NCBI GenBank assembly: GCA_012295275.1
Contig: CM022678.1
Span: forward strand, 3,658,001-3,722,000
DNA: 64,000 nt
Reading direction: 5' to 3'
Origin: Chrysomallon squamiferum
Taxonomy: Eukaryota > Animalia > Mollusca
Shown here: positions 7,661 through 47,156 of the stretch, in pieces
Layout: every line of letters begins with the position of its first letter
Numbering within the stretch: position 1 is the stretch's first letter
Notes under the pieces: generated by a model
The model's input: only the letters and a program-made list of their open reading frames with translations
What the model was told of the DNA's origin: nothing
Database searches by the model: none
Program-made: the position numbers and the translations under genes

Positions 7661-8619
7661 GTTATTGTCAAACTTTGTTGTAATGATAAGTCGCTGCAAA
7701 CAAAGAAACAATAACTTGGAGGTTTACAGAATTTACTAGACAATATCTGTTCTTACTGACACAGGTCCACTTTAAAGTGGGAGTAACATTGGTGTATATT
7801 TGTTAGAAAAAAAAAGTTATTGTATTATTTGATTCACTGTTTAAATTATACACATATCAAATAGTTTATCTGGAACTGGCAGATGATTTAACTGAAGAAC
7901 AAATAAACAAATAAATAAATAAATAAATAAATAAATAAATGAATAAATAAATGAATAAAGAGGAAAAAGAGGAAGGAGAACAAAAGATTAATATCAAGGG
8001 GGATAATAGGCCACGGCTTGCGCACCCCATGAACGCTCCTGGACTTGTTGTCAAGACAACGAGGTAAATACAGTGTACACGAAATAAACAGATTGCTTAG
8101 AGCGACCAACGCCATGATCACAAGAGATTTGCGTTTTACTGACGTGAATCAAAGTTATTTATAGATAATTATAATCTGACGAAAGGAGAAGAAAGAAGGA
8201 AAGAAAAGAAATGAACATTAATACGAAAGCTTTCAGTACGAGAGTTAAGATTTTTTTTATGTCGTTTTCAGTATAGCAATAATTAATATCAAGCCACACG
8301 TTAGCTTCGAGATAAAAGTGAATAAATAAATAAGTAAAGCAAGAGAAGCAGCCTAAATTTATCGGTTACTGATAGATTAGATGACAAAAATGTTAAATTT
8401 CAAAATTAAACATGAGAGATCTGCGTGTTAGTAACGTGATTCTTATTCATGATTATATGTAGAGAATTATAATAGGACATCATAAAAGAAAAGCAAATTG
8501 AAAGAAATGAAATAAATAAAAATAAAAATAAAAATAAAATAAAATAAAATAAATAAATAAATAAACAAACAAATAAATAAATAAATAAATGCAAAATGTA
8601 GAGTTGGATGGAAAGTTAT

Positions 8620-9390
8620 TAAAAAACAGACAGGGTGAAACTCCTTTTTTTACAGCTCTGAGTTACTACCAGTATCATTCTAACAAACACCAAGATGTGC
8701 TCTCTTGTCAGAACAAAGTTTTGTATTCACTGGAACATGGAGCTGATTCTAATTTTACAGAGAATGAACAAAGAAATTTAGAAGTTGTGACAACACTGAC
8801 TGAAAAAGGTTTCATGTAAATGTTAAAAACAGTGTAGGTGAAACTGCTCTTTTTACAGCTCTGAATTACTACAAATTTAATTCTCCCGAATGCCGAATGT
8901 GTACTCTCATAAGAGCATCGTAATTTTGTACAATGTTTTACTGGAACATGGAACTGACCCTAATTTAACAGACAATGACAGCAATTCTGTTTTACACTTA
9001 GCGGCTAAACATGGAAATATACAAATTGTGACAGCACTGATTGAAAAAAGCTTTTAATGTAAATATTAAAAACAGTAAAGGTGAAACTTCTCTTTTCAGA
9101 GCTGTTAAATATAAACGGAAGAAAATAATTTTGTATTTACTGGAACATGGAGCTGATCCTAATTTAACAGACAAAGATAACAATTCTGTTCTACACCAAC
9201 AGCTGAACAAGAAATAAAGAAATGTTGACAGTACTAATAGAAAATGGCGTTAAAGTAAATGTAATTAATTGCAGTGGTGAAACTTCTCTTGATAAAGCTA
9301 AGAATTGCAGATTTTGTTGTGAAAGGGAAACTGTTCTGTATTTACTGGAGCATGCTTCTAAAGATAGTAACAGATAAACTAACTGTAAAA
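8620..9390 (+). pseudogene. Decayed ankyrin-repeat array (3' end of an ankyrin gene)
   Basis: Repeated GET(P/A/S)LF.A, LLEHG(A/T)DPNLTD and NSVLHLAAKHGNIQIVTALI motifs with frameshifts and stops. No 5' part is visible. Confidence 0.85.
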
Positions 9391-16259: not shown

Positions 16260-16704
16260 CTAACTCCCCTTATTACCGAGATAACAAAACACCCCGAATC
16301 TGTGACGTGTCGCTTTGTAAAAGATCACCCGATATATCCAAGCGGGTTACTGACAGAACGATCAGACGACATATTCTTCTCTGCGAATTTGTTAGTCTAC
16401 AAGGTTGGAGATTTTCTTGCATTTAAAACACAGGTAAGTCAAATTTATACTATACTGTTCTGTGTTGTGACTGTTGATTGTTTATTTATTTCACAGTAAA
16501 CCTAGTTATTAACTGTGTTTGTTGACCTCGAACACCAGCACTCGAAACTCGTCTCGTTAGTATTTTTCTCGCACAAATGTTGTACGATGGAATATACTAG
16601 AGAACCAGAAAAGAACAGTATTATTTTTATTAAATTATTTATTTATTTGATTGTTACATGATATAGTTAAATAAACAAATAAATAAACAAAAGGAACAAT
16701 AATA

Positions 16705-17076
16705 ATGACGAGCGAACAGTTATAGAAATAATAATGCATTCTTTGTTCAGTTATCTTATAAAATAGTGGATAGAGGAATAAAATATCTACGAAATAACTG
16801 ATTATTTGAAAATACAAAACAGAATTTAATATATATTTATTAATTTCTTCAAATATTAATGATGATGTAATTGAGTTTAACTGGTAAGATGCAAAAGATG
16901 TAGAACAATTATCATAAGCCACGGGTTAAAATATGTTTAATATTTAGATAACGTTAATAAAGTAATAAGTTAATTTGTATATACAAATTTGCTATAATTC
17001 TAATCGGTTACTGAGCTGTAACTCATAATGAATAAAAAGGATATTCTTTTGTTTGCTGTGATCTTTTATTTTTGAA

Positions 17077-17136
<60 letters not shown>

Positions 17137-18209
17137 TAACTGTTTAATATGGAGTATCTTTTAGAAATTATTTTTGACAACTGGTGATGAAAGATTTAAG
17201 TTATTGTTAAATTTCTTAGTTTCACTAATTAAAATTATTTATTAAATTACATTATTGCTATGAATTAAAAAATTAAATGGAAGATAAATAATACGACATC
17301 AACTGATTTTGTAAATGTTTGAGAATGAAAGGTTTATTATTAATAGTCAGTTTTCTCTGTCGTTACATTTTAAAATAAAGAAGCTCACTGCTCAAGGTCA
17401 CTGTTACTTTAAGACAAGATCATTGTCACGAGATCTAGTAACGTTCCACTTTATAATACTTAACGTGTTTTGTCACGTAGACCCGATTTAGGAAAAAAAA
17501 AACCCCAAGACTGTTGTTATTATTACCCATGTTTTCATATTTACTGAGTTTTGTATATTTAGAAACGTTTCTACACAACTGAAGTAATCGCATTATCATC
17601 CATCAAAGAAGACTGATTTTAAAGCAGTCGATATTACAATTCATTATTATTGTTTCAGTATGTTTGTGATTTCTTGCTTTTACTTAATTATAATTTAAAA
17701 CTCATAACCACGTGTTGGTAGACAGTTTATTTAGTGGCAGATTTGTAATTATTTATTTATGTACTATTATTTTTGCAGGGTTTGTTTTTAATATCTTTTC
17801 GATCAAGTATACAGACAGTTTGAAAAACGTGCTATACATAGAACTGGTGTAAAACGTGTTTACATTGTCACCAAGCAAAAACAGTAACACACTACGTGGA
17901 AACCTGTGACGTGTCATCTTATGTCACCTGACATATCTAAGCGTACCAATCACAGAGCGAGCAGGCGAAGAATTTCTGGCAACTCGTTAGTTGGCACCAG
18001 TCCAGTTTACTGCGATTTCGTCAGACAGGTAGGGGTACCTTATACTACACTGTTATTAGTAGTGACTGTTGATGGTTTATTTATTTCAAAGTATAAAATT
18101 AATAATTTTATTTTATTTGTTTGATTGTTTGTTTGTTTGTTTATTTATTTATTTATTTATATTTCGTCGTTTTATTATGAACTAATACAATTGCCTCAAA
18201 AATAAAAAA

Positions 18210-18249
<40 letters not shown>

Positions 18250-19044
18250 CACTTATTTATTTTATAATATTTTACTATATCGTTTTCATAAAAATGTCAA
18301 AATATATCTTTGTGTAATGATAAACAACGTTATAAAAAATAACGGCACCAATAAAAGAAGTGGTGTCAAAGTATAACTGTGTTGACGAACTAACATGTTG
18401 TAAAAATAATAATTTATAATGTGTGTTCTGTTGTAAAATAGCCAATGGAGGAATAAATATCTTCGGAATAACTGATTATTTAAAAATACAAAATTAAATT
18501 TAACTACTTTCGTCAAATATTAATGTAAATTAGTTTATTTAAAAGGTTAGAAAGTTATGATTTTTACTTTTGATTTCTTCTTTCTTTCTTCTTCTTCTTC
18601 TTCTTCTTCTTCTTATTATTATTATATTTTTTTGATCGTTAAATTTGGAATTTCTTCTTATTAATATCTTTTGACAAAGTCATGAAACATTCACATTGTT
18701 AAATATTTCGACTTCATTAAACGAACATTTTATTATTTTATTAAATTACATACCTGCGAAAAATTAAATTAAAGGATAAATACTACGATGCAAACAATTT
18801 TGTCATTATCTAAGAATAAATGTTTCGTTATTAAAACTTAATGGTAAAATCAGAAAGGTCAGTGTTACTTTAAGGTGAGATCATTGTCACGAGGTCTAAA
18901 CATTTGAAATACTTAATGTGAGTTTTGTCACGTAGATACGAATAAGCAAAGAAAAGTATACTTTTTCTAGTGATTATTATTTTCTTAATTAAAAATAAAT
19001 AAATGTGTGTTTCTTTGTTGTTTATTTATTTCTTTTTTTATAAA

Positions 19045-19077
<33 letters not shown>

Positions 19078-19572
19078 TTGTTTTCTTGATTGTTTAAATT
19101 TGTAATTTCTTCTCATTAATATTTTTTTGGACAAGGTCGTGAAACATTCACATTGTTAAATATTTCGACTTTTATTAAATTACATGTCTGCGAAAAATTA
19201 AATCAACGAACAGTTTATAGAAATAATAATGCATTCTTTGTTCAGTTATCTTATAAAAATAGTGAATGGAAGAATAAAATATCTACGAAATAACTGATTA
19301 TTTGAAAGTACAAAACAGAATTTAATATATATTTGTTAATTTCTTCAAATATTAATGATGATGTAATTGAGTTTAATTGGTAAGGTGCAAAAGATGTAGA
19401 ACAATTATCATAAGCCACGGGTTAAAATATGTTTAATATTTAGAAAACGTTAATAAAGTAATAAGTTAATTTGTATATACAAATTTGCTATAATTCTAAT
19501 CGGTTACTGAGCTGTAAGTTATAATGAATAAAAAGGATATTCTTTTGTTTGTTGTGATGTTTTATTTTTGGA

Positions 19573-19613
<41 letters not shown>

Positions 19614-20701
19614 GATTATTATTATTATTATTATTATTTAACTGTTTAATATGGAGTATCTTTTAGAAATTATTCTTGACAACTGGTGATGAAAGATTCA
19701 AGTTATTGTTAAATTTCGTAGTTTCACTAATTAAAATTATTTAGTAAATTACATTATTGCTATGAATTAAAAAATTAAATGGAAGATAAATAATACGACA
19801 TCAACTGATTTTGTAAATGTTTGAGAATGAAAGGTTTATTATTAATAGTCAGTTTTCTCTGTCGTTACATTTTAAAATAAAGAAGCTCACTGCTCAAGGT
19901 CACTGTTACTTTAAGACAAGATCATTGTCACGAGATCTAGTCACGTTCCACTTTATAATACTTAACGTGTTTTGTCACGTAGACCCGATTTAGGAAAAAA
20001 AAAAAACCAAGACTGTTGTTATTATTACCCATGTTTTCATATTTACTGAGTTTTGTATATTTAGAAACGTTTCTACACAACTGAAGTAATCGCATTATCA
20101 TCCATCAAAGAAGACTGATTTTAAAGCAGTCGATATTACAATTCATTATTATTGTTTCAGTATGTTTGTGATTTCTTGCTTTTACTTAATTATAATTTAA
20201 AACTCATAACCACGTGTTGGTAGACAGTTTATTTAGTGGCAGATTTGTAATTATTTATTTATGTACTATTATTTTTGCAGGGTTTGTTTTTAATATCTTT
20301 TCGATCAAGTATACAGACAGTTTGAAAAACGTGCTATACATAGAACTGGTGTAAAACGTGTTTACATTGTCACCAAGCAAAAACAGTAACACACTACGTG
20401 GAAACCTGTGACGTGTCATCTTATGTCACCTGACATATCTAAGCGTACGAATCACAGAGCGAGCAGGCGACGTAGAATTTCTGGCAACTCGTTAGTTGGC
20501 ACCAGTCCAGTTTACTGCGATTTCGTCAGACAGGTAGGGGTACCTTATGCTACACTGGTATTAGTAGTGACTGTTGATGGTTTATTTATTTCAAAGTATA
20601 AAATTAATAATTTTATTTTATTTGTTTGGTTGTTTGTTTGTTTGTTTATTTATTTATTTATTTATATTTCGTCGTTTTATTATGAACTAATACAATTACC
20701 T

Positions 20702-20747
<46 letters not shown>

Positions 20748-21103
20748 CACTTATTTATTTTATTATATTTTACTATATCGTTTTCATAAAAAAGTCAAAA
20801 TATATCTTTGTGTAATGATAAACAACGTTATAAAAAATAACGGCACCAATAAAAGAAGTGGTGTCAAAGTATAACTGTGTTGACGAACTAACATGTTGTA
20901 AAAATAATAATTTATAATGTGTGTTCTGTTGTAAAATAGCCAATGGAGGAATAAATATCTTCGGAATAACTGATTATTTAAAAATACAAAATTAAATTTA
21001 ACTACTTTCGTCAAATATTAATGTAAATTAGTTTATTTAAAAAGTTAGAAAGTTATGATTTTTACTTTTGATTTCTTCTTTCTTTCTTCTTCTTCTTCTT
21101 CTT

Positions 21104-21134
<31 letters not shown>

Positions 21135-22666
21135 TTATTATTATTATATTTTTTTGATCGTTAAATTTGGAATTTCTTCTTATTAATATCTTTTGACAAA
21201 GTCATGAAACATTCACATTGTTAAATATTTCGACTTCATTAAACGAACATTTTATTATTTTATTAAATTACATACCTGCGAAAAATTAAATTAAAGGATA
21301 AATACTACGATGCAAACAATTTTGTCATTATCTAAGAATAAATGTTTCGTTATTAAAACTTAATGGTAAAATCAGAAAGGTCAGTGTTACTTTAAGGTGA
21401 GATCATTGTCACGAGGTCTAAACATTTGAAATACTTAATGTGAGTTTTGTCACGTAGATACGAATAAGCAAAGAAAAGTATACTTTTTCTAGTGATTATT
21501 ATTTTCTTAATTAAAAATAAATAAATGTGTGTTTCTTTGTTGTTTATTTATTTCTTTTTTTATAAAATTATTATTATTATTATTATTATTATTATTTAAC
21601 TGTTTAATATGGAGTATCTTTTAGAAATTATTCTTGACAACTGGTGATGAAAGATTCAAGTTATTGTTAAATTTCGTAGTTTCACTAATTAAAATTATTT
21701 AGTAAATTACATTATTGCTATGAATTAAAAAATTAAATGGAAGATAAATAATACGACATCAACTGATTTTGTAAATGTTTGAGAATGAAAGGTTTATTAT
21801 TAATAGTCAGTTTTCTCTGTCGTTACATTTTAAAATAAAGAAGCTCACTGCTCAAGGTCACTGTTACTTTAAGACAAGATCATTGTCACGAGATCTAGTC
21901 ACGTTCCACTTTATAATACTTAACGTGTTTTGTCACGTAGACCCGATTTAGGAAAAAAAACAACCCCAAGACTGTTGTTATTATTACCCATGTTTTCATA
22001 TTTACTGAGTTTTGTATATTTAGAAACGTTTCTACACAACTGAAGTAATCGCATTATCATCCATCAAAGAAGACTGATTTTAAAGCAGTCGATATTACAA
22101 TTCATTATTATTGTTTCAGTATGTTTGTGATTTCTTGCTTTTACTTAATTATAATTTAAAACTCATAACCACGTGTTGGTAGACAGTTTATTTAGTGGCA
22201 GATTTGTAATTATTTATTTATGTACTATTATTTTTGCAGGGTTTGTTTTTAATATCTTTTCGATCAAGTATACAGACAGTTTGAAAAACGTGCTATACAT
22301 AGAACTGGTGTAAAACGTGTTTACATTGTCACCAAGCAAAAACAGTAACACACTACGTGGAAACCTGTGACGTGTCATCTTATGTCACCTGACATATCTA
22401 AGCGTACGAATCACAGAGCGAGCAGGCGACGTAGAATTTCTGGCAACTCGTTAGTTGGCACCAGTCCAGTTTACTGCGATTTCGTCAGACAGGTAGGGGT
22501 ACCTTATACTACACTGTTATTAGTAGTGACTGTTGATGGTTTATTTATTTCAAAGTATAAAATTAATAATTTTATTTTATTTGTTTGATTGTTTGTTTGT
22601 TTGTTTATTTATTTATTTATTTATGTTTCGTCGTTTTATTATGAACTAATACAATTGCCTCAAAAA

Positions 22667-22702
<36 letters not shown>

Positions 22703-23064
22703 CATTTATTTATTTTATGATATTTTACTGTCGTTTTCATTGAATAATAAAAAGTCAAAATATATCTTTTGTGTAATGATAATAAAAAATAAAAAGTAAT
22801 AACAAAAAAAATAAAACGGCACCAATAATAGAAGCGCGGTCTAAGTATAACTGTGTTGACGAACTAACATTCATTAAAAATAATAATTTATAATGTGTGT
22901 TCTGTTGTAAAATAGCCAATGGAGGCATAAATATCTTCGGAATAACTGATTATTTAAAAATACAAAATTAAAGTTAACTACTTTCGTCAAATATTAATGT
23001 AAATTAGTTTATTTAAAAAGTTAGAAAGTTATGATTTTCACTTTTGATTTCTTCTTTCTTTCTT

Positions 23065-23095
<31 letters not shown>

Positions 23096-23130
23096 TTATT
23101 ATTATTAACTTTGGAGATCTTTCTTTAAGT
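16705..23130 (+). repeat. Direct tandem triplication, ~2.5 kb unit (third copy truncated)
   Basis: The same sequence recurs at 17906, 20408 and 22367 (offsets 2502 and 1959). The third copy starts within an (ATT)n tract. Confidence 0.9.
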
Positions 23131-23229: not shown

Positions 23230-23374
23230 ATACCCTAAAAATTTAAAAAGTAAAAAATAAAAAATAAAAGATAGAATGTTTAAAAAAATAAAAATAAAAT
23301 AAAATAAAATAAATAATAACAATAATAGGAATAACAACACCAACAACAACAGCAATAATAACAATAATAATAAT

Positions 23375-23430
<56 letters not shown>

Positions 23431-25215
23431 TTAACCTGCTTTGTTTTATATAATTATACTCATTCTTCATATTTACATTTGCCAAATCAACCCTCCTTCC
23501 CAACCTCAGCCCCACGGTTCTTATCTTGACCCCCAGTTCCTAAAACAAATTTCTATGACTGTCAAGATACGCTAGAATAGTCAGCTGGAATTACACACAG
23601 CGCTTTTAAAGTTTAAATTTAAACAAATCTTTCGTAGCACAAGTCACACATCAAGAATCTTTGTAACTAGGAAATCGAAACTTCATAACTAACACAACTA
23701 ATAAATAAAGTCAGTTTATTCCTCCATCTTGTAAATTATTATTATTATTATATAGAATTATAAATTAATTAGACAACAGAAAATTTATTTTTTCAATGTT
23801 TGATTTCTAATTTTCTAATAGTGTTGTAATTGACCTGACTAGTTATCGTGGAGTTTCCAATGGTGTGATTTGTATCTATTTATAGGTCACCTCGGTGAAT
23901 ATGTAAACTCTTATCTGTGAAGAAAGATCCCACTAATCAGTTGAATTCATTGCATTGATAATACAAATATTATTTACCATGACTTAGTGTCAGACATAAC
24001 ATATATTTATTTTAATATCATCATTTATTAATGTTTCTCTTTCTTGCACCTCCCAAAATAATTTTCGAATATTTTTATACATCTGATCTTAATAAGGTTG
24101 ACACCGGTTTATTAGTTATATTGTTGTTCAAGGAAAGAACGCCTGCACTTCCTTGTCGATATCAACTTGTTTTTTCTTCAAACAATTCATTCCTTACGAT
24201 AAGTCAGTAATTTATAAATTAATTTGATAAAAAAAAATTTGTTTTCTTAATGTTTGATTAATAATTTTTATATAGTGTTGTAATTTACCGGATCAGTCAT
24301 CGTGGAGTTTCCAGTCCTGTGATTTGTATCTATTTATAGATCACCTCGGTGTATACGTAAATTGTCATCTATGAAGAAACATCCCACTAGTCAGATGAAT
24401 TCATTAGACTGATAATAACAATATTATATACCATGATTTGTGTCAGACATCAGATATATTTAATTTATTATCATCATTTATTAATTTGTCTCTTTTCTCG
24501 ACCTTACAATATCTTTTTCTCATATTTTATACATTTGATCTTAACAAGGTTGACACCGGTTTATTAGTTATATTGTTGGGACAGGAAAGAACGCCAACAC
24601 TTCCTTGTCGATATCAACTTGTTTTTCCTTGAAAAAATTCATTTCTTACGGTAAGTCAGTAATTTTCTGATGTTTAAGTGGTTTATACTTTCGTTTAGAA
24701 ACAAATACGACATCAGAAAATATATTTCCTGTAAAATCAGAGTTAAAGTTAAATGTTCTACGTCTTAGTTTCAGTTTCGAAAATATCTCTTAGTAAGGAT
24801 TAATAATAATAATTATAATAATGATGATACTACAACAACAACAACAACAACTACTACTACTACTACTAGTAGCAGTAGTAGTAGTAATAATAATAATGAT
24901 AATAATAATAACAACAATAACAACAACTACAACACCAGCACTAATGATTATTATTATGGTTGTTGTTGTTGTTATTGTTTAATTAGTTTTTATCAAGTTA
25001 CTGGCAATTAAAATTAACATTTTATTCGGTTTTCATAATTGAATAATGATAACCATTGTATGTAGGCACATAACAGACTTGCAGTTTACCAAATTAGAAA
25101 ATAATTCTTATGGAAGGACATACACAGTCTACGATCACTCTTTCCAAACCTCTGCCCCACTGAACTTATTACTGTACAGAATTTTAAATTAAATTTATAA
25201 ATAAAAAAATAATAA
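23230..25215 (+). promoter_or_regulatory. Shared upstream block (copy 1) with ISRE/IRF-like motifs and tandem ~470 bp units ending in donor-like sites
   Basis: Homologous to ~34350-36360, ~41150-42900 and, diverged, ~50160-50900. Contains GAAATCGAAACT (23671-23682), AGTTTCAGTTTC (24767-24778), TGGAGTTTCC (23849-23858) and cttacg|GTAAGT (~24651). Regulatory function is inferred. Confidence 0.45.
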
Positions 25216-28188
25216 TTTATTGTTGTTGTATGTGTTGTTGTAGTAGTAGTTGTTGTTGTTATTATTATTATTATTATCACTGCCAACATACGTTGGAAAA
25301 ATCATCCGGAATTATATAAATTAGTCATTTGTGTCACGTTACATTATAATAATCTTTGTTATAACGAAAGCGATACTTGATAATTTACTAACGCAGATAT
25401 TCACTAAATGTTTTATTAAGAATTTTAGTTTTCACCTTGTTCAGATATAATCTGGTTTTACAAATTTATATACATCGACTGTTGATTGTGGAATTTGTGA
25501 AATCAGCTAATGTTTCCAGTGAGAACAGAGGTAGCCATGCTCTCTCAATAACTTGTGTACATACAAAACTATCATGTGACTGAAACAGGTCTTGTATTAC
25601 AAATATACTAGTAAGCAGTGCTGGTCTATTTTTGTAAAAGTACATGACTGTTTATTGTATTACATTTGATTCATATAATATTATTTTGTAAGCTACCTGG
25701 ATCCATTATATTGATAATAAATAAATTAATTAATAAAACTGGATTTTAATCATCAGTTTTATGTCTGTTAAAGAATTTTTAATTCTTTGAAAAAAGGGAA
25801 TTATAATGGATTAATTTTTAATTTTAGTAAGTATTTTTTTTTTCTCGGTACTTAATTTTTTTGTTTTAATATTTTGGGCAAATATGTTTCATAATAATAA
25901 AAGGAATATGTATTAATTTAAGAAGCAAGATAAATCATTATGTAAGTTTTGTATTGTTCTATTGACAGGACAGAAGAGTTGTATGGTCAGTGACAGAAAA
26001 TTGGTTTAACATACAGCAGCTAATGCCTAAAGATGGGTTCAAATAAACTGAAGGTAAGTAAATATTTAAAAAAAAAAAAAAAAAATTGCTTACTTTAACA
26101 CGCAAACAGAAACTGAAACACACATGTAAATATACATTTCAAATTCAAGTTCAATTAAAATTTAGTATTATAAGTGTAAAATGTACAAAATACGATTGAT
26201 AAAACTTAAGTTGTCAAACCTAGTATCAGGCTATGTCCAGGTTTTATTAAAAATACCTATTCATTGTTTTTGTGGTTTATTACTTGTAATCATCTTTATA
26301 AATTTTTAACATTTACATAACATATTTTACACTGACATCATATCTGTCCCTGATACTAGTTACCTAATGTTTTCTTTGTTATTATTTCTTTATTTATTTC
26401 AAAATTGAAGTAATAGGTCATTATTGAACATTATTAAAAAATGTTTGTTATGTTTTGTTATTTTTCCAACATAGTAAAATGACTGTATCACTTGTCATTC
26501 GTTTAAAAAAGAAAATGAATTGATATGTTTTCAGCCACTGAATATTTATGACTTCAGTTTTTTTTCAAATATTTAATCAGTTTTAAGCAAGCAGTATCAA
26601 ATAAGTAAACTCAGTTAGGTAACACGAACTTTCATCCAAACATTTTGAAGCATAAATAGAGTACTTTTTTTTTACACACTTCGACTGGCAAATAGAGATG
26701 TGTGTTTATGAATCTATATCTTCAATCTGTGATAAATTATTATATTTACTGTAGACTAATTTTCACTCACTAAATTATTAAACTATTTATAAATATAATA
26801 GAATAATGACTACTAGTATTATTTTGAAAATACATTTACGTTTAATGTTTAAGTGAAAGAATATATTTTCAAACACAATCATATGTTATTATAATTACTG
26901 TAGAATTATGTTTAACTGCATGAAATAACTTTAAATATTTTTTTTTCTTTTTCTGATACATGTGTATAGAGTGTGGAGAAATCATCTTTAAAAATAAAAT
27001 GTAAATGAAGAAAGTCTTTGTATAAGTATGATAATGCTTGAATGCTATACTATTTATAGATGTCACTACTGTGTTGGTGGATTTTCAACATGTCAGTTTC
27101 AAACACAAGACGCACGGAGGAAATGTGTCTGTACATTAACATGAAATCATGAAGTGATCAAGATTTGGAATGGAAAATAATGCAGATTATTAACAGCTGA
27201 AAACTTCAAATTCTCAAAGTATGTGTACACAAGTAGACATAATAGAGAACAAAAAATATTCATTTAAAAATATAACGGACTTGTCACCCTGATTTGAAGT
27301 ATTACACGTTCTTACATATTTAATAATAAATTAAAAATATAAGAACTTCTAATGATAATAAATAAGTAAACATATTACCTACTTTAAGAATTAACCTGAA
27401 TACAAATAAATATGACAAATTTGCTAAAAAACCTGAGGAAAAGGCAGGAGAGTGTGACAATATGATATAGACATAGAAAAGTGTTAAGCACCCTTGTATT
27501 ATATAGAACATTTCTTGTAATCACAATATTGTCACAAAATTTCCAGTACTATTTAACACTAAAATAGTTTAAGATGGTCGTTTCAAAGAGAAAATATTAA
27601 TTTGAATATGTAGATGACATCTTAGATAAAGTGTTCACTGGCAAGTAAGTATTCAACTGAATTCAATATCCAAGTTAAATGTTGGATTTGCCATCTTTGT
27701 CTTTCTGATGCCCACCATTGTGTCATGTTGATATTGAATGATTTAGCTGTGGTAGACAGTGAAGTCAAAACTCTCTATGTAATATGTGAGTACACTGCAG
27801 TTTCAGAAAAAAAGGAGACGTGATACACTGACCTGTCACAGTGAAATCAGTTGAGACTATCCTTCAGAAACATGGAACATCATTGTGTTGTTAATAATCA
27901 TAAAATTGTAATTACTTGTCACATGTTGTCACTCATTATCTCAGTGCTAACATTTTCTCCAGGAGTATATTTGTGACATTTTCATTCGAATTGTTTATAT
28001 CACATAATTTTCTACTGTAAGAGTATAATTAAAACTATTCAGATATTATTTATACATTTATATTATTTATATAACATAATCTAGTTATAGGCTTTATTTG
28101 ATTAGCTTTACGAAAATATTCCTCGAATATATTTATAGAAGAAAAGTTGAGAATACAGTTTATAAGTCTCAGACTAATATTAATACAA

Positions 28189-28472: not shown

Positions 28473-28537
28473 AATGTATTTATTTTCTTTCTTCTATCAT
28501 AAAAATCATCATATTATTTTTTTGCAGCTCAGCCAAT

Positions 28538-31517
28538 ATGGATGACAAAAATGAGAATTCACAAATTTCATCTAATGCCACAGATGTTTCTTCCTCAGAA
28601 AGTAAGACAAAATTATTTAAATATTTCATTTATTGTATTCTTCTTCTTCTTCTTCTTCTTTTTCTTCTTCTTCTTTTTACGCTTTGTAAAGGGACACGTT
28701 TTTTTAATATTCCTAATAAATTAACAATTCAATGATGTGGGTCTTGTTTTTGTTCGGAAATACATAGTTGTTATCATCTGATTTCAAATCCATATAATTT
28801 TATTGTTATATTTCGTAATACTGTTAAAACAGATGGCATTAATAGTGTACACTGTCATATCTCTACATGCAGATACAAATGTTTTTAGAAATTATATTTA
28901 TAAATTGTGAATTTAAATTATTTATTTCATTCTGTTGACAAAGATACTGGAAGAACACAACCAGTGGTAGAAAGTAATGTAAATATCAGGACAGTTCAGA
29001 ATTACCACACTGTGACTAATAGCAGGAATGTTGTATTTGGAAATCAAGTTATTAACACCAGTAAGTTAAAAAACTGAAATTTGTCTTTTTTCTACCTGTT
29101 TAATGAATAAGAGAATACACATTACAGTAGTCATTATTACTTTTCTATTACTGTGACCCGAACAACATAGAAACATTCTGATAAATGTATGTTAAAATGA
29201 ATAAGATTTTCTTCTTAAACTATTAAAATAACTCAACACAAATTAAACAACACTATATTCCTGTCATTATTATAACATGTAAATACTCAAATACAGTGCA
29301 AGGTACATGTAGCAAGGTACATGAAGCAACAACAGTAGCAACAACAACAAGGACAATAATACTAACAATAACTATAAACCAAAAAAAAAAAAAAAAAAAA
29401 CGTTAGTCATAAGAAAAACAGCAGTAGTTTTGATAATAGTAGGAGCAATTATATAAAATAAATAACAAAGATATAATAATAATAATATATGTTTACTGTT
29501 TCATGATTAAAGTGGAGAGTAATTGAACAAATCACTTTAATCATTCTCTTTTATTCAGCATCAGTAATACACACTTACTTGTTTTACTGTTTTGTTATTT
29601 CAGCAAAGATTGACGGACGAGCATCCACTATCAAAGGTATTTTATTATTTGAATAGTTTCCAAAGATAATCATAAATAACAGGATAATCATCTCTACTTT
29701 TACACCATCTAAAATCGTGACATCTTATTATCATCATTACATTGTCATGAACCAAAAATTATAACAACACTCTAAAATTATATTATTTATATTGAAATGG
29801 TAAAATATGTTCTAAATAATCAATAATAGATGTTAATATTTTAATGTTATGATACAGAGTGTACCAGGTCAATGTTAAACTCAGTTGACTGGAGATCTAT
29901 ATTGAAACAAGAGCAGAGAAAAGAGGTGTTGCACTTTTGAAGCAGCATGGTGTTGTGATTGTAGTAGGAAGTCCAGGTTCAGGAAAGACAACTCTAGCTT
30001 CGAGGATGATGAGACATATAGAAAATGAAGAAAAAAAAGAATCATACTTGCTGACTTATCACTATGAATTCAATGACATCTCTCTATCTGGAAACAAGAA
30101 ATGTGTTGTTCTCATTGATGATATATTTGGTAAGACTAATCTTGTTTCAGATTTTATAGACTCATGGAAACTGAAATTTCCAAACATTTGGAATTTTGTT
30201 CAGGATGGTTCTCTGAAATGTATTATTACTTTAAGAAAACAAATATTTTCAGAAAGCGAAATTAGTTTGAACGAATTTGATCTGTTTAATGAGAAACATG
30301 TTCTTGATCTGCAGAGTGATGACTGCTGTCTGACTGACGATGAAAAGGAAAACATTCTAAACAAATATCTAAAACAAAAGGATGTTAAAATGGATGAAAT
30401 GGATAAATTGACTGCCATTGAAAGTTCATGTATAGAGTTAGGGTTTCCTCAGGTCTGCGTGTTTTATGTTAATTCAAGAAATGCACAAAAAAGAGGAGTT
30501 GAGTTTTTTGCGAAACCTGTAGAATATCTCAGACAACAGCTGAAAAATTTGAAAACTGACAAATCTTCACAGATCAATTACCTGGTTCTACTGATCATCT
30601 TGTTCCGACAAGGCAGTCTCAGCATTGATTCACTGGACCCATTTGAAAATGACACTGACAGTGACATAATGAAATTAATAAAATTGCTAGAGCGAGTCTG
30701 TAGAGGTCTGAAAAGCACTGATCTTACAGATATAAAGGAAACAGCTGATGTAATGTGTGGTACGTATTTGAAGTGTTGTGACAATAAATACACATTTATT
30801 CATCAGTCAGTGTTTGACTCTTTGTTTCTGTTGTTTTCATCAAAGTTTCCAAAGAAAGCAGCAGAATTGCTAGAAGTGTGTCCTGTCTCCATGTTGTTAG
30901 AATATGTTGTGACACCTGGAGTGTCTAACAAAAGTCACATTACAATGACTGTGACACCTGACTGCTTTGATTTTCTTGCTCGCAGATTTTCTGACTTGCT
31001 TGCATCAGAAAATTTTACAGAAATTGTTTCACATCCATCACTGAAAGATGAAGAGTTTCTAAAATACCTAATACAGGAAAAGGATTTTTATGGTAGGTTG
31101 TCTGAAATACTGTATCAAAGACTATATGGAGATCAATGTAAATATTTTTATATATCATTTGTACATGTAGACACTGTTAATGAAATATTTAGCAATGTTT
31201 CATGTCTTCCTGACAGTGATTTACAGTTTAATTATAGAGGTATGTGGCATTTGAAAGTTGAAGAATGTTATATAAATTCATCAACTGTTGCAAGTGAATG
31301 TATTGTGAACGGACTAAAATCATTGTCAAGACTATTCACATCAAATCTATGCAAAATGAAATTAACATATCTGAAAAAAGAACTTTTGGATATTTCTTGT
31401 TTGTTTGGTGATGAGGATGTTGTGAGAATGTTGCTAAAATCAGGTGTTATTCCAACATTTGATACATTCAGTGCCGCTGCTTGTTCAAAAACAGACAGTG
31501 CTACCATACTCAAAGAA
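28538..31517 (+). CDS. STAND-class (nSTAND3-like) P-loop NTPase with N-terminal RHIM-like motif and start of ankyrin-like repeats; 3' end lost in gap; apparent 1-nt frameshift
   Basis: Predicted exons 28538-28601, 28944-29060, 29604-29636 and 29858-31517+, all GT-AG and phase 1. Walker A GSPGSGKT, Walker B VVLIDDIFG, IITLR sensor, GFP (GxP), YTFIHQSV winged-helix motif, then ankyrin-like LLDISCLFGDEDVVRMLLKSG. Frame breaks near 29889. Confidence 0.8.
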
Positions 31518-31717
31518 NNNNNNNNNNNNNNNNNNNNNNNNNNNNNNNNNNNNNNNNNNNNNNNNNNNNNNNNNNNNNNNNNNNNNNNNNNNNNNNNNNN
31601 NNNNNNNNNNNNNNNNNNNNNNNNNNNNNNNNNNNNNNNNNNNNNNNNNNNNNNNNNNNNNNNNNNNNNNNNNNNNNNNNNNNNNNNNNNNNNNNNNNNN
31701 NNNNNNNNNNNNNNNNN
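31518..31717. other. Assembly gap (200 N)
   Basis: Run of exactly 200 N, probably a placeholder size. Confidence 0.99.
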
Positions 31718-33700: not shown

Positions 33701-34111
33701 TTAACTAAAACCTGAATGATCAATTCTGGATGCTAGGAATCGCCATCTCTCTTGATCACCAACTAAGACATTGTAGGCCTACATGTATGATCATATGATA
33801 TCAGACTACTTACCTCATTGCCTTCTCACCAGTTCAGCAGTCACAGAATCATTCAGTAACCCACTTCCCCCATAATCTTGCAATTCTAGCATCATCCTTT
33901 TTACTCAGAGAGTACATCCGTCGAGAAGATGCAACAGAAGGTGTATCAATGACACAGAATATGTCCCTTTCACTAATCCAGCAAGTGTCTTCTTTGTTTG
34001 GCCCCAAAAGAAGAAGTTATATGTAGTCTTTATTCCCGTCACCAAAGCATGAATCTAATAAAACATCCTCGTGAACGTACATGTATACATCATGTTTACA
34101 TTCTGCTGTAT

Positions 34112-34345
34112 CTAAGAAAATATCAGAGCAGGAATCTGACGCGTAGAATTTAAATTCTTTGTCAAAAGTACGCAGGTCTGAATCGAGGAAATCAAACACA
34201 AAGTCATCAACAACAACATGCGGTATGTCTTCATTACCAAAGAATGTACGTTCACCTCTCATCCTGTAACAAATAGTGATCATTTTATTTGCTTCAATGG
34301 CGACGTGTTCTTTAAAATAAACAGAAAACATTTTGCTTTTGTCTT
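34112..34345 (-). pseudogene. 3' (PHR) fragment of a BTB-BACK-PHR paralog
   Basis: MFSVYFKEHVAIEANKMITICYRMRGERTF matches 514-745, with a +1 frameshift near 34145. Fused at ~34349 to the shared upstream block. Confidence 0.9.
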
Positions 34346-34464
34346 TTCCCTAAAAATTTAAAATGTAAAAAAAAAAAATAAAAGATAGAATGTTTTATTA
34401 AAAATAAAAATAAAATAAAATAAATAATAACAATAACAGCAATAACAACACCACCAACAACAGC

Positions 34465-34526
<62 letters not shown>

Positions 34527-36675
34527 TAATAATAATAATAATAATAATACAAATTAACCTGCTTTGTTTTATATAATTATACTCATTCTACATATTTACA
34601 TTTGCCAAATCAACCCTCCTTCCCAACCTCAGCCCCACATATCTTATCTTGACCCCCAGTTCCTAAAACAAAGTTCTATGACTGTCAAGACACACTAGAA
34701 TAGTCAGCTGGAATTACACACAGTGCGTTTAAAGTTTAAATTTAAACTAATCTTTCGTTGCACAAGTCACACATCAAGAATCTTTGTTACTAGGAAATAG
34801 AAACTTCATAACTAATTAACACAACTGATAAAAAAAAAGTCAGTTTAATCCTCCATCTTGTAAATTAATATTATTATTGCATAGAATTATAAATTAATTA
34901 GATAATAGAAAATTTATTTTCTCAAAGTTTGATTTCTAATTTTAAAATAGTGTTGTAACTTACCTGACTAGTTATCGTGGCGTTTCCAATGGTGTGATTT
35001 GTATCTATTTATAGATCACCTCGGTGTACATGTAAATTGTTATCTATGAAGAAACATCCCACTAATCAGTTGAATTCATTACATTGATAATACAAATATT
35101 ATTTACCATGACTTAGTGTCAGACATAACATATATTTATTTTAATATCATCATTTATTAATGTTTCTCTTTCCTGCACCTCTCAAAATCTTTTTCGAATA
35201 TTTTTATACATGTGATCTTAATAAGGTTGACACCGGTTTATTAGTTATATGGTTGTTCAAGGAAAGAACACCTGCACTTCCTTGTCGATATCAACTTGTT
35301 TTTTCTTCAAAAAATTCATTCCTTACGGTAAGTCAGTAATTTATAAATTAATTCGATAACAGAAAATTTATTTTCTCAATGTTTGATTAATAATTTTAAT
35401 ATAGTGTTGTAATTTACCTGACTAGTTATCGTGGAGTTTCCAATCCTGTGACTTGTATCTATTTATAGATCACCTCGGTGTATACGTAAATTGTTATTTA
35501 TGAAGAAATATCCCACTAATCAGATGAATTCATTAGACTAATAATAACAAAATTATTTACCATGATTTGTATCAGACATCAGATATATTTAATTTATTAT
35601 CATCATTTATTAATTTGTCTCTTTTCTCGACCTTACAAAATATTTTTCTCATATTTTATACATTTGATCTTAACAAGGTTGACACCGGTTTATTAGTTAT
35701 ATTGTTGGGACAGGAAAGAACGCCAACACTTCCTTGTCGATATCAACTTGTTTTTCCTTGAAAAAATTCATTTCTTACAGTAAGTCAGTAATTTTCTGAT
35801 GTTTAAGGTGTTTATACTTTCGATTAGAAACAAATACGACATCAGAAAATATATTTACTGTGAAATCAGAGTTAAAGTTAAACGTTCTACATCTTAGTTT
35901 CACTTTCGAAAATATCTCTTAGTAAGGATTAATAATAATAATTATAATAATGATGACACGACTACTACTACTACTACAACAACCACTACTACTACTACTA
36001 CTAGTAGTAGTAATAATGACAATGATAATGATAATAATAATAACAAGAACAATAACAAGAACAACTACAACACCAGGAGTAATAATTAATTAGTTTTTAT
36101 AAAGTTACTAGGAATTAAAATTAACATTTTAACTATATATATTTTTTCTCTAATTATACTAACGTATTTTATTCGGTTTTCATAATTGAATAATGATAAC
36201 CATTGTATGTAGGCACATAACAGACTTGCAGTTTACCAAATTAGAAAATAATTCTTATGGAAGGACATACACAGTCTACGATCACTCTTTCCAAACCTCT
36301 GCCCCACTGAACTTTTTACTGTACAGAATTTTAAATTAAATTTATAAATAAATAAAAAAATAATAATTGGTTTTCGCAGTGTTTGGTTAAATGTTTTAAA
36401 AAACATTGTACAGATTATAATTTAATTATCGCGGAGTTTCTGATGACGTGATTTTTATCTCTTTATAGGTCAACCGGTGTATACGTAAACACTTGTCCAT
36501 GAAGAAAGATCTTTCAATTATTTGATAAAATGATAAATAAAAATATTATTTACCATAACCTATCCCTTTTATACTTTGAAATAAAAACAAAAACGGCTTC
36601 ACAAGACATATTTACTACAGAAACAGAGTTAATAATAAATGTTCACTTTCTAAAATATCTTTTAATAAGGATTAT

Positions 36676-36754
<79 letters not shown>

Positions 36755-37409
36755 GCTGCTGCTTTTATTATTTATTTTTTTTTTTTTTTATTTCTGTTAT
36801 TCACCACCATCGTGATTTTGATAATAAGTATTATATCTCACTAAATATGGATAAAAAAAAACAACAGCAAAGAAACATCAACAGCAAAAAAGAGAAGAAA
36901 ACAAATGAAAAACTAAACTATAATAAAATAAACCAGCCATATTGTAACATCGTGAACCAGTTCCACGTTTTATTCATCCATTCATATCACGTGACAAGTG
37001 TATTTAGGAAGCCCGTGTGAAAAATATGATTTACTACTACTACTACTACTACTACTCCTAATACTAAGACAAATCTATCTAATTGAGGTTTTCAGTGTAA
37101 GAAACTGATTTCTTTTTTCCTGTTTTCCTTTACATATTTGGTATTATATTCCTTTAAATCCAGCAATTTAGAATTAACTAAATATTTTCTTACACATCAC
37201 TATTACGGGCAGCAAAACGATATAAACATTTTTTTTTTTTTTTTTTTTTTACAAAAGGAATGATATATTGTATATCGGTATTAAATTACTATAATTATAT
37301 CACTTTAATAGTTGTTTCCTTTCAGTTTCAGTAATTAAACAGCAACAATAGTAACAGTACAACCTCACGAAAACTGAAAGAATTAAGAAAAAGATCAGAA
37401 AATCGATTA

Positions 37410-38744
37410 ATGATGGATCGAAACGAAGACTGGCAGACGAGAAAAACACTGGCGCAGACCAACTTGTACATGCTAGAGAACGAGATTGCGTGTGACGTCA
37501 CCTTCAGAGTTGGGTCATCAAGGGAGGTTATTCGAGCTCACAAGTTCATAATGATCAGTCGTAGTCACGTGTTGGCTACAATGTTCACTGGTGTGATGGC
37601 TGAACAAGGAGAGGTAGATATCCCGGATGTTGACGCCAAAGTTTTCAAATTATTTCTCAGGTAAAAGTTCAACATATTTGAATGTGTTTATTTATTTACT
37701 TATTTACTAGTACATAGGACTTTTTCTATTATTAGGATATAGTACAGTCTTTTATTAGTACATTTTTATATATGTATTTGTGTGTGAGTGTGCTTGTATG
37801 CATTCCGACATATATGTATTTAAGAATTAAACCACACACTGGCAGAGGAAATTCTTTTATTATTTTCGAAATCTTCTTATCATTTTTAATTTGTATGTCT
37901 ATTGACTAAAGTTTATTAATGTTTATTACAGGGTGCTTTGGTCTTGTGTATTTATGTCGTTTCTGCTGCTAGTTCTGTTACTATTGCTACTATTTACTGT
38001 TGTAGATTTTTGTACACGAACAACATGGAAATAGAACCTGACAGTGTTATGCATTTGTTGTATCTGGCCAAGAAATACAGCACCGGAACACTTGAAGATA
38101 TCTGTCGTAAATACTTAGAAACATCCCTGACTGCAGAAAATGCCTGCACGATACTGGAACAGGCCAAGTTTTTCAGCGAAAAGGAACTGGAAAATAGAGC
38201 GATGGACTGCATCATGAAGAAAGGTAAGAAAGCCGTGAAAGGTTCAGATTTTTTGAATTTGTCGCAGTCGTCACTTCTGGAAGTTGTGAAAAGTGATGAT
38301 TTTCAAGTTGAAGAGGAGGACGTGTTCAACGCCGTGTTTGAATGGGCGAAGAATCGGTGTCAGAAGGACAACGTGGATGTGAATACCGAGTCTTTAAGAA
38401 AAGTACTTGGAGACGTCGTCCAGCAAATTCGTTTTCCATTGATGGACAGAGAATGTTTTGTTAAAACTGTTGGACCGAGTCGTATGCTCACTGACAAAGA
38501 ACGCCTGATGATTTCTGACCAGATGACTTGTAAAGATCTTCCCGTCGAACCATTCAGTGATAAGAAAAGACAATTATTCGTGTGCGCCAATTGCGGTTTT
38601 GATAATAATACTGAGTTCAGGATATGTAACCGTTGTTATTGTTGTAAATTATGCCGCGTGCAAGCGAAACACCATAAACAGGAAAAATACGATGAACAGC
38701 CTGTTTATACACTATACTGTCCAAAGTGTGGACAAACAAAATAA
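37410..38744 (+). CDS. BTB-BACK protein with C-terminal Cys zinc fingers, copy A
   Basis: Exons 37410-37660 and 38006-38744 (phase 2, FLR|FLYT). The intron position is the same as in the BTB-PHR gene. The C-terminus has four CxxC pairs. Confidence 0.9.
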
Positions 38745-39394: not shown

Positions 39395-39832
39395 TCATTT
39401 ATTAGTTAGCATAGTTGTCCAGTTAACTGGGTCTTCGATTGGCGGAAAGAAAAAGTGGGTGGGAACAAACCAATTAATTAGCCAATAGTTTCCAAACACG
39501 CTTCTGAATTTCTCACCAATTGTTCTCCTGTCAACCAACCTGGTTCTTTTCTTCTTGGAATTATTTTCAAACGTAGTTATCCCCCTTGTTATCAGATAAA
39601 TATGTTCGGTGAAAAATTTTGCACTGAGAAGAACGCAGTAGAAATGTAGTGACGTAATAGAGACGTAAACGGCAACAGTCAGTGACGTATAGCCCATGAT
39701 ACAGCGGACAAGAGCAGAGAGAGCAAAAGTGTCGACGTAATTCATGGAAGACCAAAGAATTTGATGGATGAAGACGAGAAGATGGAGAAAACAGTAACTG
39801 CTTCCCATCAGCGTCCAGAAACAAAATATGAC
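39395..39832 (-). pseudogene. 3' fragment of DHHC palmitoyltransferase (copy A), lacking the DHHC motif
   Basis: Near-identical to the C-terminal ~145 aa of copies B and C. Truncated at an inversion junction at ~39830. Confidence 0.9.
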
Positions 39833-40574: not shown

Positions 40575-40697
40575 CCTCTGCTCTGGTCCTACACGAAATG
40601 TGACGTCACAAGCGATGCCATTTTCAAACATGTGTAAATTGGTGTCTGCAAACCCTTCTGATGATTGCCAGTTCTTTCCATTATCATCCGTTGACAT
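40575..40697 (-). pseudogene. 5' fragment of a BTB-BACK-PHR paralog
   Basis: MSTDDNGKNWQSSEGFADTNLHMFENGIACDVTFRVGPEQR matches ~1803-1926, then breaks into unrelated sequence. Confidence 0.9.
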
Positions 40698-41138: not shown

Positions 41139-43211
41139 TACGAAGAGAATAACCTAAAAATTTAAAATGTAAAAAATAAAAAAACAAAAGATAGAATGTT
41201 TTTTTTTAAATAAAAATAAAATAAAATAAATACTAACAATAATAGCAATAACAACACCAATAATAATACCAACAACAACAACAACATCAACAACAATAAT
41301 ACAGAAGGAAATCGAAACTTTATAACTGACTAATACAACTGATAAATAAAGTCAGTTTAATCCTCCATCTTGTAAATTAATATTATTATTGTACAGAATT
41401 ATAAATTAATTAGATAACAGAAAATTTATTTCCTCAATGTTTGATTTCTAATTTTAAAACAGTGTTGTAATTTACTTGACTAGTTATCGTGGCGTTTCCA
41501 ATGGTGTGATTTGTATCTATTTATAGATCACCTCGGTGTACATGTAAATTGTTATCTATGAAGAAACATCCCACTAATCAGTTGAATTCATTACATTGAT
41601 AATACAAATATTATTTACCATGACTTAGTGTCAGACATAACATATATTTATTTTAATATCATCATTTATTAATGTTTCTCTTTCCTGCACCTCTCAAAAT
41701 CTTTTTCGAATATTTTTATACATCTGATCTTAATAAGGTTGACACCGGTTTATTAGTTATATGGTTGTTCAAGGAAAGAACGCCTGCACTTCCTTGTCGA
41801 TATCAACTTGTTTTTCTTCAAAAAATTCATTCCTTACGGTAAGTCAGTAATTTATAAATTAATTTGATAAAAGAAAATTTATTTTCTTAATGTTTGATTA
41901 ATAATTTTAATATAGTGTTGTAATTTACCGGATTAGTCATCGTGGAGTTTCCAATCCTGTGACTTGTATCTATTTATAGGTCACCTCGGTGTATACGTAA
42001 ATTGTTATTTATGAAGAAACATCCCACTAATCAGATGAATTCATTAGACTGATAATAACAAAATTATTTACCATGATTTGTGTCAGACATCAGATATATT
42101 TAATTTATTATCATCATTTATTAATTTGTCTCTTTTCTCGACCTTACAAAATCTTTTTCTCATATTTTATACATCTGATCTTAACAAGGTTGACACCGGT
42201 TTATTAGTTATATTGTTGGGACAGGAAAGAACGCCAACACTTCCTTGTCGATATCAACTTGTTTTTCCTTGAAAAAATTCATTTCTTACAGTAAGTCAGT
42301 AATTTTGTGATCTTTAAGGGGTTTATACTTTCGATTAGAAACAAATACGACATCAGAAAATATATTTACTGTAAAATCAGAGTTAAAGTTAAATGTTCTA
42401 CGTCTTAGTTTCACTTTCGAAAATATCTCTTAGTAAGGATTAATAATAATAATTATAATAATGATGATACAACAACAACAACAACAACAACAACTACTAC
42501 TACTACTACCACTAGTAATAATAATGATAATAATAATAATAATAACAAGAACAACAACAACAACAACTACTACACCACCAGCAGTAGTGATTATTATTAT
42601 TGTTGTTGTTGTTTAATTAGTTTTTATCAAGTTACTAGCAATTAAAATTAACATTTTAACTATATATATTTTTTTTTCTCTAATTATACTAACGTATTTT
42701 ATTCGGTTTTCATAATTGAATAATGATAACCATTGTATGTAGGCACATAACAGACTTGCAGTTTACCAAATTAGAAAATAATTCTTATGGAAGGACATAC
42801 ACAGTCTACGATCACTCTTTCCAAACCTCTGCCCCACTGAACTTATTACTGTACAGAATTTTAAATTAAATTTATAAATAAAAAAAAAAAATAATAATTG
42901 GTTTTCGCAGTGTTTGGTTAAATGTTTTAAAAAACATTGTACAGATTATAATTTAATTATCGCGGAGTTTCTGATGACGTGATTTTTATCTATTTATAGG
43001 TCAACCGGTGTATACGTAAACACTTGTCTATGAAGAAAGATCTTTCAATTATTTGATAAAATGATAAATAAAAATATTATTTACCATAACCTATCCCTTT
43101 TATACTTTGAAATAAAAACAAAAATGGCATCACAAGCTATATTTACTACAGAAACAGAGTTAATAATAAATTTTCACTTTCGAAAATAACTTTTAATAAG
43201 GATTATTACTG

Positions 43212-43597: not shown

Positions 43598-43947
43598 CTA
43601 ATACTAAGACAAATCTATCTAATTGAGGTTTTCAGTGTAAGAAACTGATTTCTTTTTTCCTGTTTTCCTTTACATATTTGGTATTATATTCCTTTAAATC
43701 CAGCAATTTAGAATTAACTAAATATTTTCTTACACATCACTATTACGGGCAGCAAAACGATATAAACATTTTTTTTTTTTTTTTAATTACAAAAGGAATG
43801 ATGTATTGTATATCGGTATTAAATTACTATAATTATATCACTTTAATAGTTGTTTCCTTTCAGTTTCAGTAATTAAACAGCAACAATAGTAACAGTACAA
43901 CCTCACGAAAACTGAAAGAATTAAGAAAAAGATCACAAAACCGATTA

Positions 43948-47034: not shown

Positions 47035-47156
47035 ATCTAAAAAGAATAAGAAACAGAAATACATGAATAGAATGTACATGGGACTGGAATCATGTTTTAA
47101 CATATTATTGTCATATACAATACTTTTTGCTTGTACATATATTTTTACCTATACTG

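Follow-up and report, generated by a model that had tools for sequence, protein, structure and literature searches.

A RHIM-like motif ahead of the NTPase in mollusc nSTAND3-ankyrin receptors: a candidate amyloid-seeding signal

The DNA analyzed here is a stretch of 64,000 nucleotides from Chrysomallon squamiferum (assembly GCA_012295275.1, contig CM022678.1, positions 3,658,001 to 3,722,000 of the forward strand), referred to as the window, with positions counted from its first letter. Between positions 28528 and 31517 it carries a gene that is predicted to place a short RHIM-like motif just ahead of a STAND-type NTPase. We read this gene as a copy of a mollusc nSTAND3-ankyrin receptor of NLR-like design, whose N-terminal motif would act as an amyloid-seeding signal, a reading that draws on analogy and to which we give an even chance. 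The motif itself is probably a real feature of the receptor family. The initial annotation had proposed that the gene encodes a protein composed of motif, NTPase and ankyrin sensor, and this fails for the copy as assembled, owing to a frameshift and an assembly gap.

The NTPase and its family

The open reading frame (ORF) at 29889-31517 matched the Pfam family nSTAND3 (PF20720), whose HMM the initial annotation had proposed to run, with an E-value of 1.1e-25 and 90.5 bits against a curated cut-off of 27.2. All residues that are invariant or nearly so among the relatives are retained in the NTPase of the window. In the naming of the STAND literature, the Walker A motif is at 29967-29990, the Walker B motif at 30108-30122, the sensor arginine by 30236, the GxP motif at 30441-30449 and the winged-helix histidine motif at 30795-30809. 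An AlphaFold2 model of the NTPase (pLDDT 81) aligned with NB-ARC, Apaf-1 and NACHT structures across 270-330 residues, with Z scores of 13-15 and root-mean-square deviations (rmsd) of 3.8-7.1. Among these matches were 8bob, a STAND protein of the maltose regulon (Z 15.1, rmsd 4.3, 282 residues aligned), NRC2 (Z 14.9, rmsd 3.8, 270 aligned), NRC1 (Z 14.8) and Apaf-1 (Z 13.8, rmsd 5.0, 326 aligned); the helical assemblies 9jap and 9nc9 were found as well. Foldseek returned the same STAND group as its best structural matches, and the top match in the Atlas (0.99) was a mollusc nSTAND3 cluster. The predicted structure has the NTPase, helical and winged-helix fold of an NLR-like STAND receptor, and together with the profile match it bears out the STAND identity that had been assigned to this ORF.

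The closest matches were proteins of Gigantopelta aegis (34-43%) and of Haliotis. A search of representative sequences gave 1035 relatives at E ≤ 1e-3, the best 150 of which were analyzed. Ankyrin repeats were present in 13 of the 14 long homologue matches, and a profile-based search recovered those same 14 proteins. A quickly built tree comprised 63 rows, the strongest matches together with rows chosen for their N-termini; in it the window sequence grouped with nine Gigantopelta proteins (SH-aLRT 100). Sequence comparison thus supports the placement of the gene in an nSTAND3-ankyrin family.

Gene model

The coordinates of the predicted exons are collected in Table 1. Exons 1-3 have AG/GT borders and every one of them ends in phase 1. 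When spliced onto the CAG acceptor at 29857, the three small exons give a peptide identical to that of the initial annotation, and the codons of the motif lie where it had placed them, in the one frame in which exon 2 is open. Exon 1 is preceded by an acceptor of its own; there is thus an upstream exon, and translation may begin before the ATG at 28538. The candidate upstream exon at 25969-26053 is probably 5' untranslated region, as judged from its ATGs, which either run into an early stop or do not share the frame of 28538. Translation from Met40 of the ORF was rejected, as the Walker A motif would be lost. The N-terminus had also been described as lacking a death-fold or TIR domain; this holds for the exon-2 peptide, which gave no match, and the whole spliced N-terminus lay outside that scan.

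Conservation of the N-terminal motif

N-termini were taken from 154 relatives, 75 of which were dropped for having fewer than 20 residues before the helix that precedes the NTPase; the 79 kept formed 52 clusters. Each 12-mer of the 71-residue N-terminus of the window protein was scanned against one member per cluster, with shuffled targets for comparison. The scan reached its maximum on the motif, where 10 and 9 of the 52 targets matched at p < 0.05 (2.6 expected), while 12-mers starting at residues 1-39 matched 0-6. When the scan was repeated, the motif 12-mers matched 8 and 10 of 52. In 150 shuffles per motif 12-mer the average was 2.7-2.8 and none attained the summed score (p 0.007), and targets from the NTPase region, used as a control, gave 3 of 52. 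The motif is therefore conserved beyond its flanks (8-10 of 52 versus about 3).

The motif also recurs in paralogues. P0020 and P0021, which belong to the same clade as the window gene, ranked first and third in the scan, and the distance from motif to NTPase is 38 residues in the window, 38 in P0020 and 42 in P0021; in a register anchored on the P-loop, the motif of P0020 lies within two residues of that of the window. Paralogues of this type with equal motif distance are about 35-39% identical to the window in the NTPase region. A motif pattern written post hoc was found in 9 of the 79 N-termini (1.8 expected) and in four of the seven clade members whose N-termini were long enough (0.15 expected), the instances including Gigantopelta, Haliotis (P0042 was put among the Haliotis rows by the tree only) and the bivalve Potamilus. 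In five of the nine pattern-bearing relatives the motif precedes the NTPase by 33-43 residues. The pattern was absent from all 20 N-termini with a folded domain (14 recognized by Pfam matches, some of them below the cut-off, and six by clustering or by eye) and present in 9 of the 59 others. With its final Gly, the full pattern occurred once in the 127,996 six-frame codons of the window, and shuffling the N-terminus 20,000 times produced it in 0.17% of cases; without the Gly these values were 15 occurrences and 4.4%.

Some results count against a conserved motif. The strongest enrichments (9/79 and 4/7) come from a pattern that was written after the sequences had been seen and was one of five tried. 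The scan matches P0155, P0078 and P0038 are plainly spurious, and none of 12 pairwise tests on the first homologue set was significant. De novo motif discovery by expectation maximization gave a best log-likelihood of 162, weakly above the 128-144 of six shuffled sets; this model was over-fitted and centred on the upstream strand.

Resemblance to RHIMs

The motif of the window departs from the RHIM in several respects. Its core is VVFG and not (V/I)-Q-(V/I/L/C)-G, and the strict core G(I/V)Q(I/V)G occurred in none of the 79 N-termini. Mutational scanning of RIPK1 and RIPK3 is reported to attribute nucleation to a hydrophobic tetrad with offsets 0, 2, 8 and 10 (10.64898/2026.02.19.706818); the window fills three of these four positions and has His at the first. 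The corresponding pattern, fixed a priori, was not enriched (17/79 versus 22.3 expected; 14/59 versus 10.8, p 0.17), nor were two further generic patterns (9 versus 8.0, and VxxG in 27/79 versus 28 in shuffled sequences). VVFG does satisfy VxxG, the cryptic RHIM core of arthropod IMD, which is uninformative because VxxG stands at chance level in these N-termini. The Pfam RHIM HMM, run as the initial annotation had suggested, gave no match, and neither RHIM nor any other amyloid-motif family of Pfam was found on the peptide, on 14+8+16 full-length relatives or on ten motif peptides. Likewise, neither the peptide nor a profile of 10 rows matched a PDB sequence, and the ESM Atlas gave no usable match for the peptide. 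The RHIM searches were run at E ≤ 10 without an invertebrate RHIM as positive control, and their filters discard weak matches. A PDB search with a stretch of P0010 returned only ubiquitin noise, and the complex prediction for four copies of the peptide scored 0.02, a value that speaks neither for nor against assembly.

Other observations point toward RHIMs. The first tetrad position is hydrophobic in six of the nine pattern instances, although the pattern did not require it (background 0.26, p 0.012), and in six of the nine relatives all four positions are hydrophobic. When polar loops of 3-7 residues were compared, only the five-residue loop, which is the RHIM spacing, was enriched (6/52 versus 2.5). 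Both motif units of P0021 have the core VQFG, which is described as a naturally occurring variant of RIPK3 that retains signaling activity in human cells (PMC12119088). The resemblance to RHIMs noted initially thus stands in the loop spacing and in the complete tetrads of relatives, and does not stand for the window motif itself in the core and tetrad tests. On its sequence features we read the motif as divergent and RHIM-like, and do not class it as a RHIM.

Two other explanations of the motif have to be weighed. The N-terminus might be a drifting low-complexity linker and the motif a chance beta-prone stretch, with the signal passing through the NTPase oligomer or through a helper receptor that carries a folded effector. 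The lack of enrichment of the a priori RHIM patterns, the missing profile matches and the frequency of the short pattern among shuffles of this N/T/V-rich N-terminus all suit such a linker, as do the 75 of 154 relatives with fewer than 20 residues before the helix, though many of these may be partial models. Against it, the conservation peak on the motif depends on residue order, the distance to the NTPase is the same in paralogues as divergent as those described above, and VQFG and hydrophobic tetrads occur in gastropod and bivalve relatives; we consider a chance linker unlikely. Alternatively, the motif could be a conserved short linear strand that docks on a folded partner or folds back on the NTPase to inhibit it, without forming amyloid. 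Conservation and position would suit any linear motif, and the core is more variable (VVFG, VHVG, VQFG, VQIP, IHVT) than in the vertebrate RHIMs reported; against it stand hydrophobic residues at RHIM tetrad spacing in six of nine relatives and a site that corresponds to the place of the amyloid motif in the described fungal and bacterial NLRs. We regard this explanation as quite unlikely.

State of the copy in the window

As assembled, the N-terminal module and the NTPase are not in one continuous frame, which counts against a working receptor at this locus. From the acceptor at 29857, the reading frame terminates about 27 codons into exon 4 and the NTPase follows in a different frame. A gapless alignment with homologues, anchored on the P-loop, requires one missing base near 29889: for the 11 residues that precede the break, the summed BLOSUM62 score against 15 homologues was +17 with the missing base and -70 in the other reading. 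In this reading, exon 3 and the opening codons of exon 4 align with the homologues without gaps, which links exon 3 to the gene and marks the lesion as a frameshift. Among the 17 AG sites within 29640-29964, eight lead to a stop and nine are open, three of the latter in phase 1 and with weak pyrimidine tracts, so that no convincing acceptor bypassing the frameshift was found in this interval. The combination of an acceptor at 29859 with read-through of the TGA was rejected for its poorer fit to the homologues.

The sensor is also missing from the assembled gene, which contains one ankyrin repeat below threshold (Ank_3 E 0.19) and then runs into the 200-N gap; no ankyrin-coding DNA was found downstream of the gap (31518-31717). 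The eight clade relatives that align to the gap point continue for another 372-1074 residues, mostly ankyrin, and we infer from them that the ankyrin array is located in the gap. The ankyrin sensor of the initial annotation is thus represented here by the single weak repeat, and by arrays in the clade relatives. The ankyrin sequences at 8.6-9.4 kb were rejected as the sensor of this receptor, being upstream and decayed.

Taken together, we lean toward the copy being a dead gene or null allele, that is, a recent pseudogene or null allele within a birth-and-death receptor family that yields a short peptide or nothing. The frameshift site has no long homopolymer, no convincing acceptor bypasses it, and the neighbouring DHHC and BTB coding exons are free of frameshifts, so that local assembly errors look rare; a decayed ankyrin remnant 20 kb from the gene and fragmentary BTB and DHHC copies nearby fit the same picture. 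On the other side, there is only a single lesion across about 1.9 kb of coding sequence, the 543 open codons keep every conserved NTPase residue, and the lesion lies 1.6 kb from an assembly gap. An assembly error is accordingly a serious possibility, somewhat short of even, and rescue of the frame by an unseen splice route is very improbable. A pseudogene at this locus is compatible with an amyloid explanation at the level of the family. While frameshift and gap stand, the window copy is a poor test object.

Proposed mechanism and comparison with known systems

For the family, we propose a mechanism by analogy with the NWD2/HET-S and BASS pairs. The ankyrin array would bind a pathogen or damage cue, upon which the NTPase would swap ADP for ATP and oligomerize. 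The oligomer would cluster the N-terminal motifs into a cross-beta seed, and this seed could recruit an adaptor with a RHIM, for which a RIPK1-like kinase is the most plausible candidate, leading to NF-kB activation or cell death. It is rather probable that the motif forms amyloid; whether it signals by an amyloid-seeding route is a question on which we stand at even or just below. The zebra mussel is reported to have a RIPK1 whose RHIM is required for maximal NF-kB activation, and the title of a cited paper names an oyster RHIM protein; no RIPK is reported to have been found in Aplysia. The partner with the same motif that the initial annotation had envisaged was not found within the 64-kb window, where the full pattern occurs once in six frames and an intron-split or gap-hidden motif would escape; this weighs against the proposal. 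The neighbours of the receptor gene are BTB-BACK and DHHC genes. A metagenome scan for related loci gave one weak 30-residue match (L001), which was not used.

The initial annotation knew of no animal precedent. However, because the RHIM-NACHT-repeat protein BF82280 of Branchiostoma was reported in 2014 as a predicted protein of NWD2-like architecture (Kajava et al. 2014, PMC4262963), a receptor design of this kind had already been predicted in animals. Like the family of the window, BF82280 is an animal STAND receptor with a RHIM in the usual place of the death-fold domain, and its authors liken it to NWD2. It differs in belonging to the NACHT clade and not to nSTAND3, in having a profile-significant RHIM where that of the window is divergent, and in being from a cephalochordate.

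The fungal NWD2/HET-S and PNT1/HELLP systems and the bacterial BASS-NLR/Bell system share with the window family a short N-terminal motif, a STAND NTPase and a repeat sensor (WD, TPR or ANK in theirs), and the motif of the window lies within low-complexity sequence shortly before the NTPase, as in NWD2/HET-S and the BASS NLRs. The PP and BASS3 motifs have a common RHIM-type core, G-phi-Q-phi-G, which the window motif lacks. The NTPase of these systems is of NACHT or NB-ARC type, and they have an adjacent effector gene with a matching motif, of which none was found in the 64-kb window. The RHIMs of RIPK1, RIPK3, ZBP1 and TRIF and the cryptic RHIMs of arthropods have the hydrophobic spacing, the final Gly and the VxxG form in common with the window motif, whereas RIPK-type RHIMs differ from it in that its core has no Gln, its first tetrad position is His and its carrier is a STAND receptor. 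Avs5, a bacterial anti-phage STAND protein (Sir2-nSTAND3-TPR), has an NTPase of the same Pfam family and the same three-part layout, but an enzymatic effector and a TPR-type sensor, and it is only 11-12% identical; nSTAND3 also figures in a survey of fungal NLRs. The NACHT/HEPN_DZIP3 expansions of molluscs (pearl oyster, PMC9646362; Crassostrea, PMC8195603) resemble the window family in being lineage-specific and copy-variable with swappable N-termini; the receptors named there are NACHT or unspecified STAND proteins with folded effectors, unlike the nSTAND3 protein of the window. The term RHIM has no occurrence in the text of PMC8195603.

Amyloid signaling seeded by NLRs is described as shown in fungi and supported in bacteria; for animal STAND receptors, the 2014 prediction from Branchiostoma was the only instance found in the literature covered. 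A 2021 review treats as an open question whether the RHIM is the sole signaling amyloid of animals (PMC7889193). Mollusc nSTAND3-ankyrin proteins with such motifs are undescribed in the literature covered, which mostly excludes subscription journals; Figure 1 of PMC4262963 and the tables of PMC8195603 may list some. Gastropods such as Aplysia, for which four NACHT proteins are reported, are described as poor in classical NLRs, and the family suggests how such gastropods might detect danger inside the cell. At the family level we hold the motif to be real, with moderate statistical support from the comparisons of N-termini. The named proteins XP_041355392.1, XP_041355986.1 and KAK3605934.1 are available for assay, and the motifs are short enough for peptides.

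N-terminal diversity in the family

Among 24 relatives scanned, the domains ahead of the NTPase were caspase, Death, CARD, DED-like, SAM or HEPN_DZIP3, and other relatives have only low-complexity sequence upstream of the NTPase. More tentatively than the readings above, we suggest that the expanded mollusc nSTAND3-ankyrin family as a whole may signal by NLR-nucleated amyloid, with the varied RHIM-like or other motifs of the paralogues interchangeable with death-fold and enzyme effectors. If true, this would mean fungal-style NLR amyloid signaling in animals and a diversity of motifs beyond the single metazoan RHIM.

Several individual N-termini deserve mention. P0030 (Haliotis rufescens XP_048241358.1) is a caspase-nSTAND3-ankyrin fusion, i.e., a receptor with a built-in protease effector, and P0124 has a SAM domain and the motif together. 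By eye, P0051 and P0053 show a region that resembles TIR, without a Pfam match at E 1e-4. Long tandem arrays of short repeats precede the NTPase in P0007 and P0011, and P0005 and P0019 have a hydrophobic N-terminal segment that is possibly membrane-spanning. In the Haliotis clade, P0031, P0044 and P0045 (and P0016) carry a second, Gly-rich type of short motif before the NTPase, doubled in P0031, which may represent a further family of amyloid-type motifs. A third N-terminal block, conserved and beta-prone, is common to P0012, P0013, P0015, P0025, P0027 and P0036, also of the Haliotis clade.

Other features of the window

Table 1 Features of the receptor gene and of its surroundings in the window.
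Feature	Position	Strand	Remarks
Candidate upstream exon	25969..26053	+	Read by eye; CAG acceptor, GTAAGT donor
Predicted exon 1	28528..28601	+	ATG at 28538; polar low-complexity start; own acceptor
Predicted exon 2	28944..29060	+	Phase 1-1; 38 whole codons; contains the motif
RHIM-like motif TVTNSRNVVFG	29009..29041	+	Conservation maximum against homologue N-termini
Predicted exon 3	29604..29636	+	Phase 1-1; begins the conserved helix preceding the NTPase, in register with homologues
Beginning of exon 4, as far as the one-base frameshift	29858..29889	+	CAG acceptor at 29857
Frameshift site	29886..29893	+	One base short against homologues; NTPase frame has TGA at 29886-29888
nSTAND3 NTPase with helical, winged-helix and arm regions	29889..31517	+	ORF; Pfam profile match
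First ankyrin-like repeat, degenerate	31383..31448	+	Ank_3 E 0.19, below cut-off; region 34-43% identical in ankyrin-bearing relatives
200-N assembly gap	31518..31717		Interrupts the NTPase/ankyrin exon
Degraded ankyrin-array remnant	8600..9370	+	Several frameshifts and stops
BTB-BACK genes and fragments, minus strand	514-1980, 34100-34350, 40575-40694	-	
BTB-BACK genes and fragments, plus strand	3625-3878, 37335-38744, 43873-45241, 51198-52640	+	
DHHC palmitoyltransferase copies	39395-39832, 45889-47148, 56355-57536	-	Two full and one partial
Element of 1.6-2 kb, three copies	23233-24868, 34348-36368, 41306-42889		Internal 456-bp tandem duplication; copies 92-96% alike

The 64-kb window is AT-rich animal DNA, and the gap listed in Table 1 is its only one. 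The degraded ankyrin array at 8600-9370 is possibly the end of a dead paralogue. Starting 2.4 kb downstream of it, the DNA at 11.8-15.2 kb is 70-78% like the DNA that follows the gap, a likeness that suggests either a dispersed repeat or a paralogue left by an old tandem duplication. The region 16700-23100 consists of tandemly duplicated units, each about 2.0-2.5 kb long and 95-97% alike. At the end of every unit there is a possible first exon (GT donors near 18030, 20535 and 22495), and the units may be duplicated promoters of the receptor gene.

One gene of the BTB cluster is of the BTB-BACK-PHR type. Three plus-strand copies are also present: two have a Cys-rich tail, and the third enters a tandem repeat. 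The DHHC copies alternate with the BTB genes in tandem units. The 1.6-2 kb element present in three copies is probably a transposon. Exons at 61035-62930 on the minus strand look like those of an organic anion transporter, presumably of the SLCO/OATP type.

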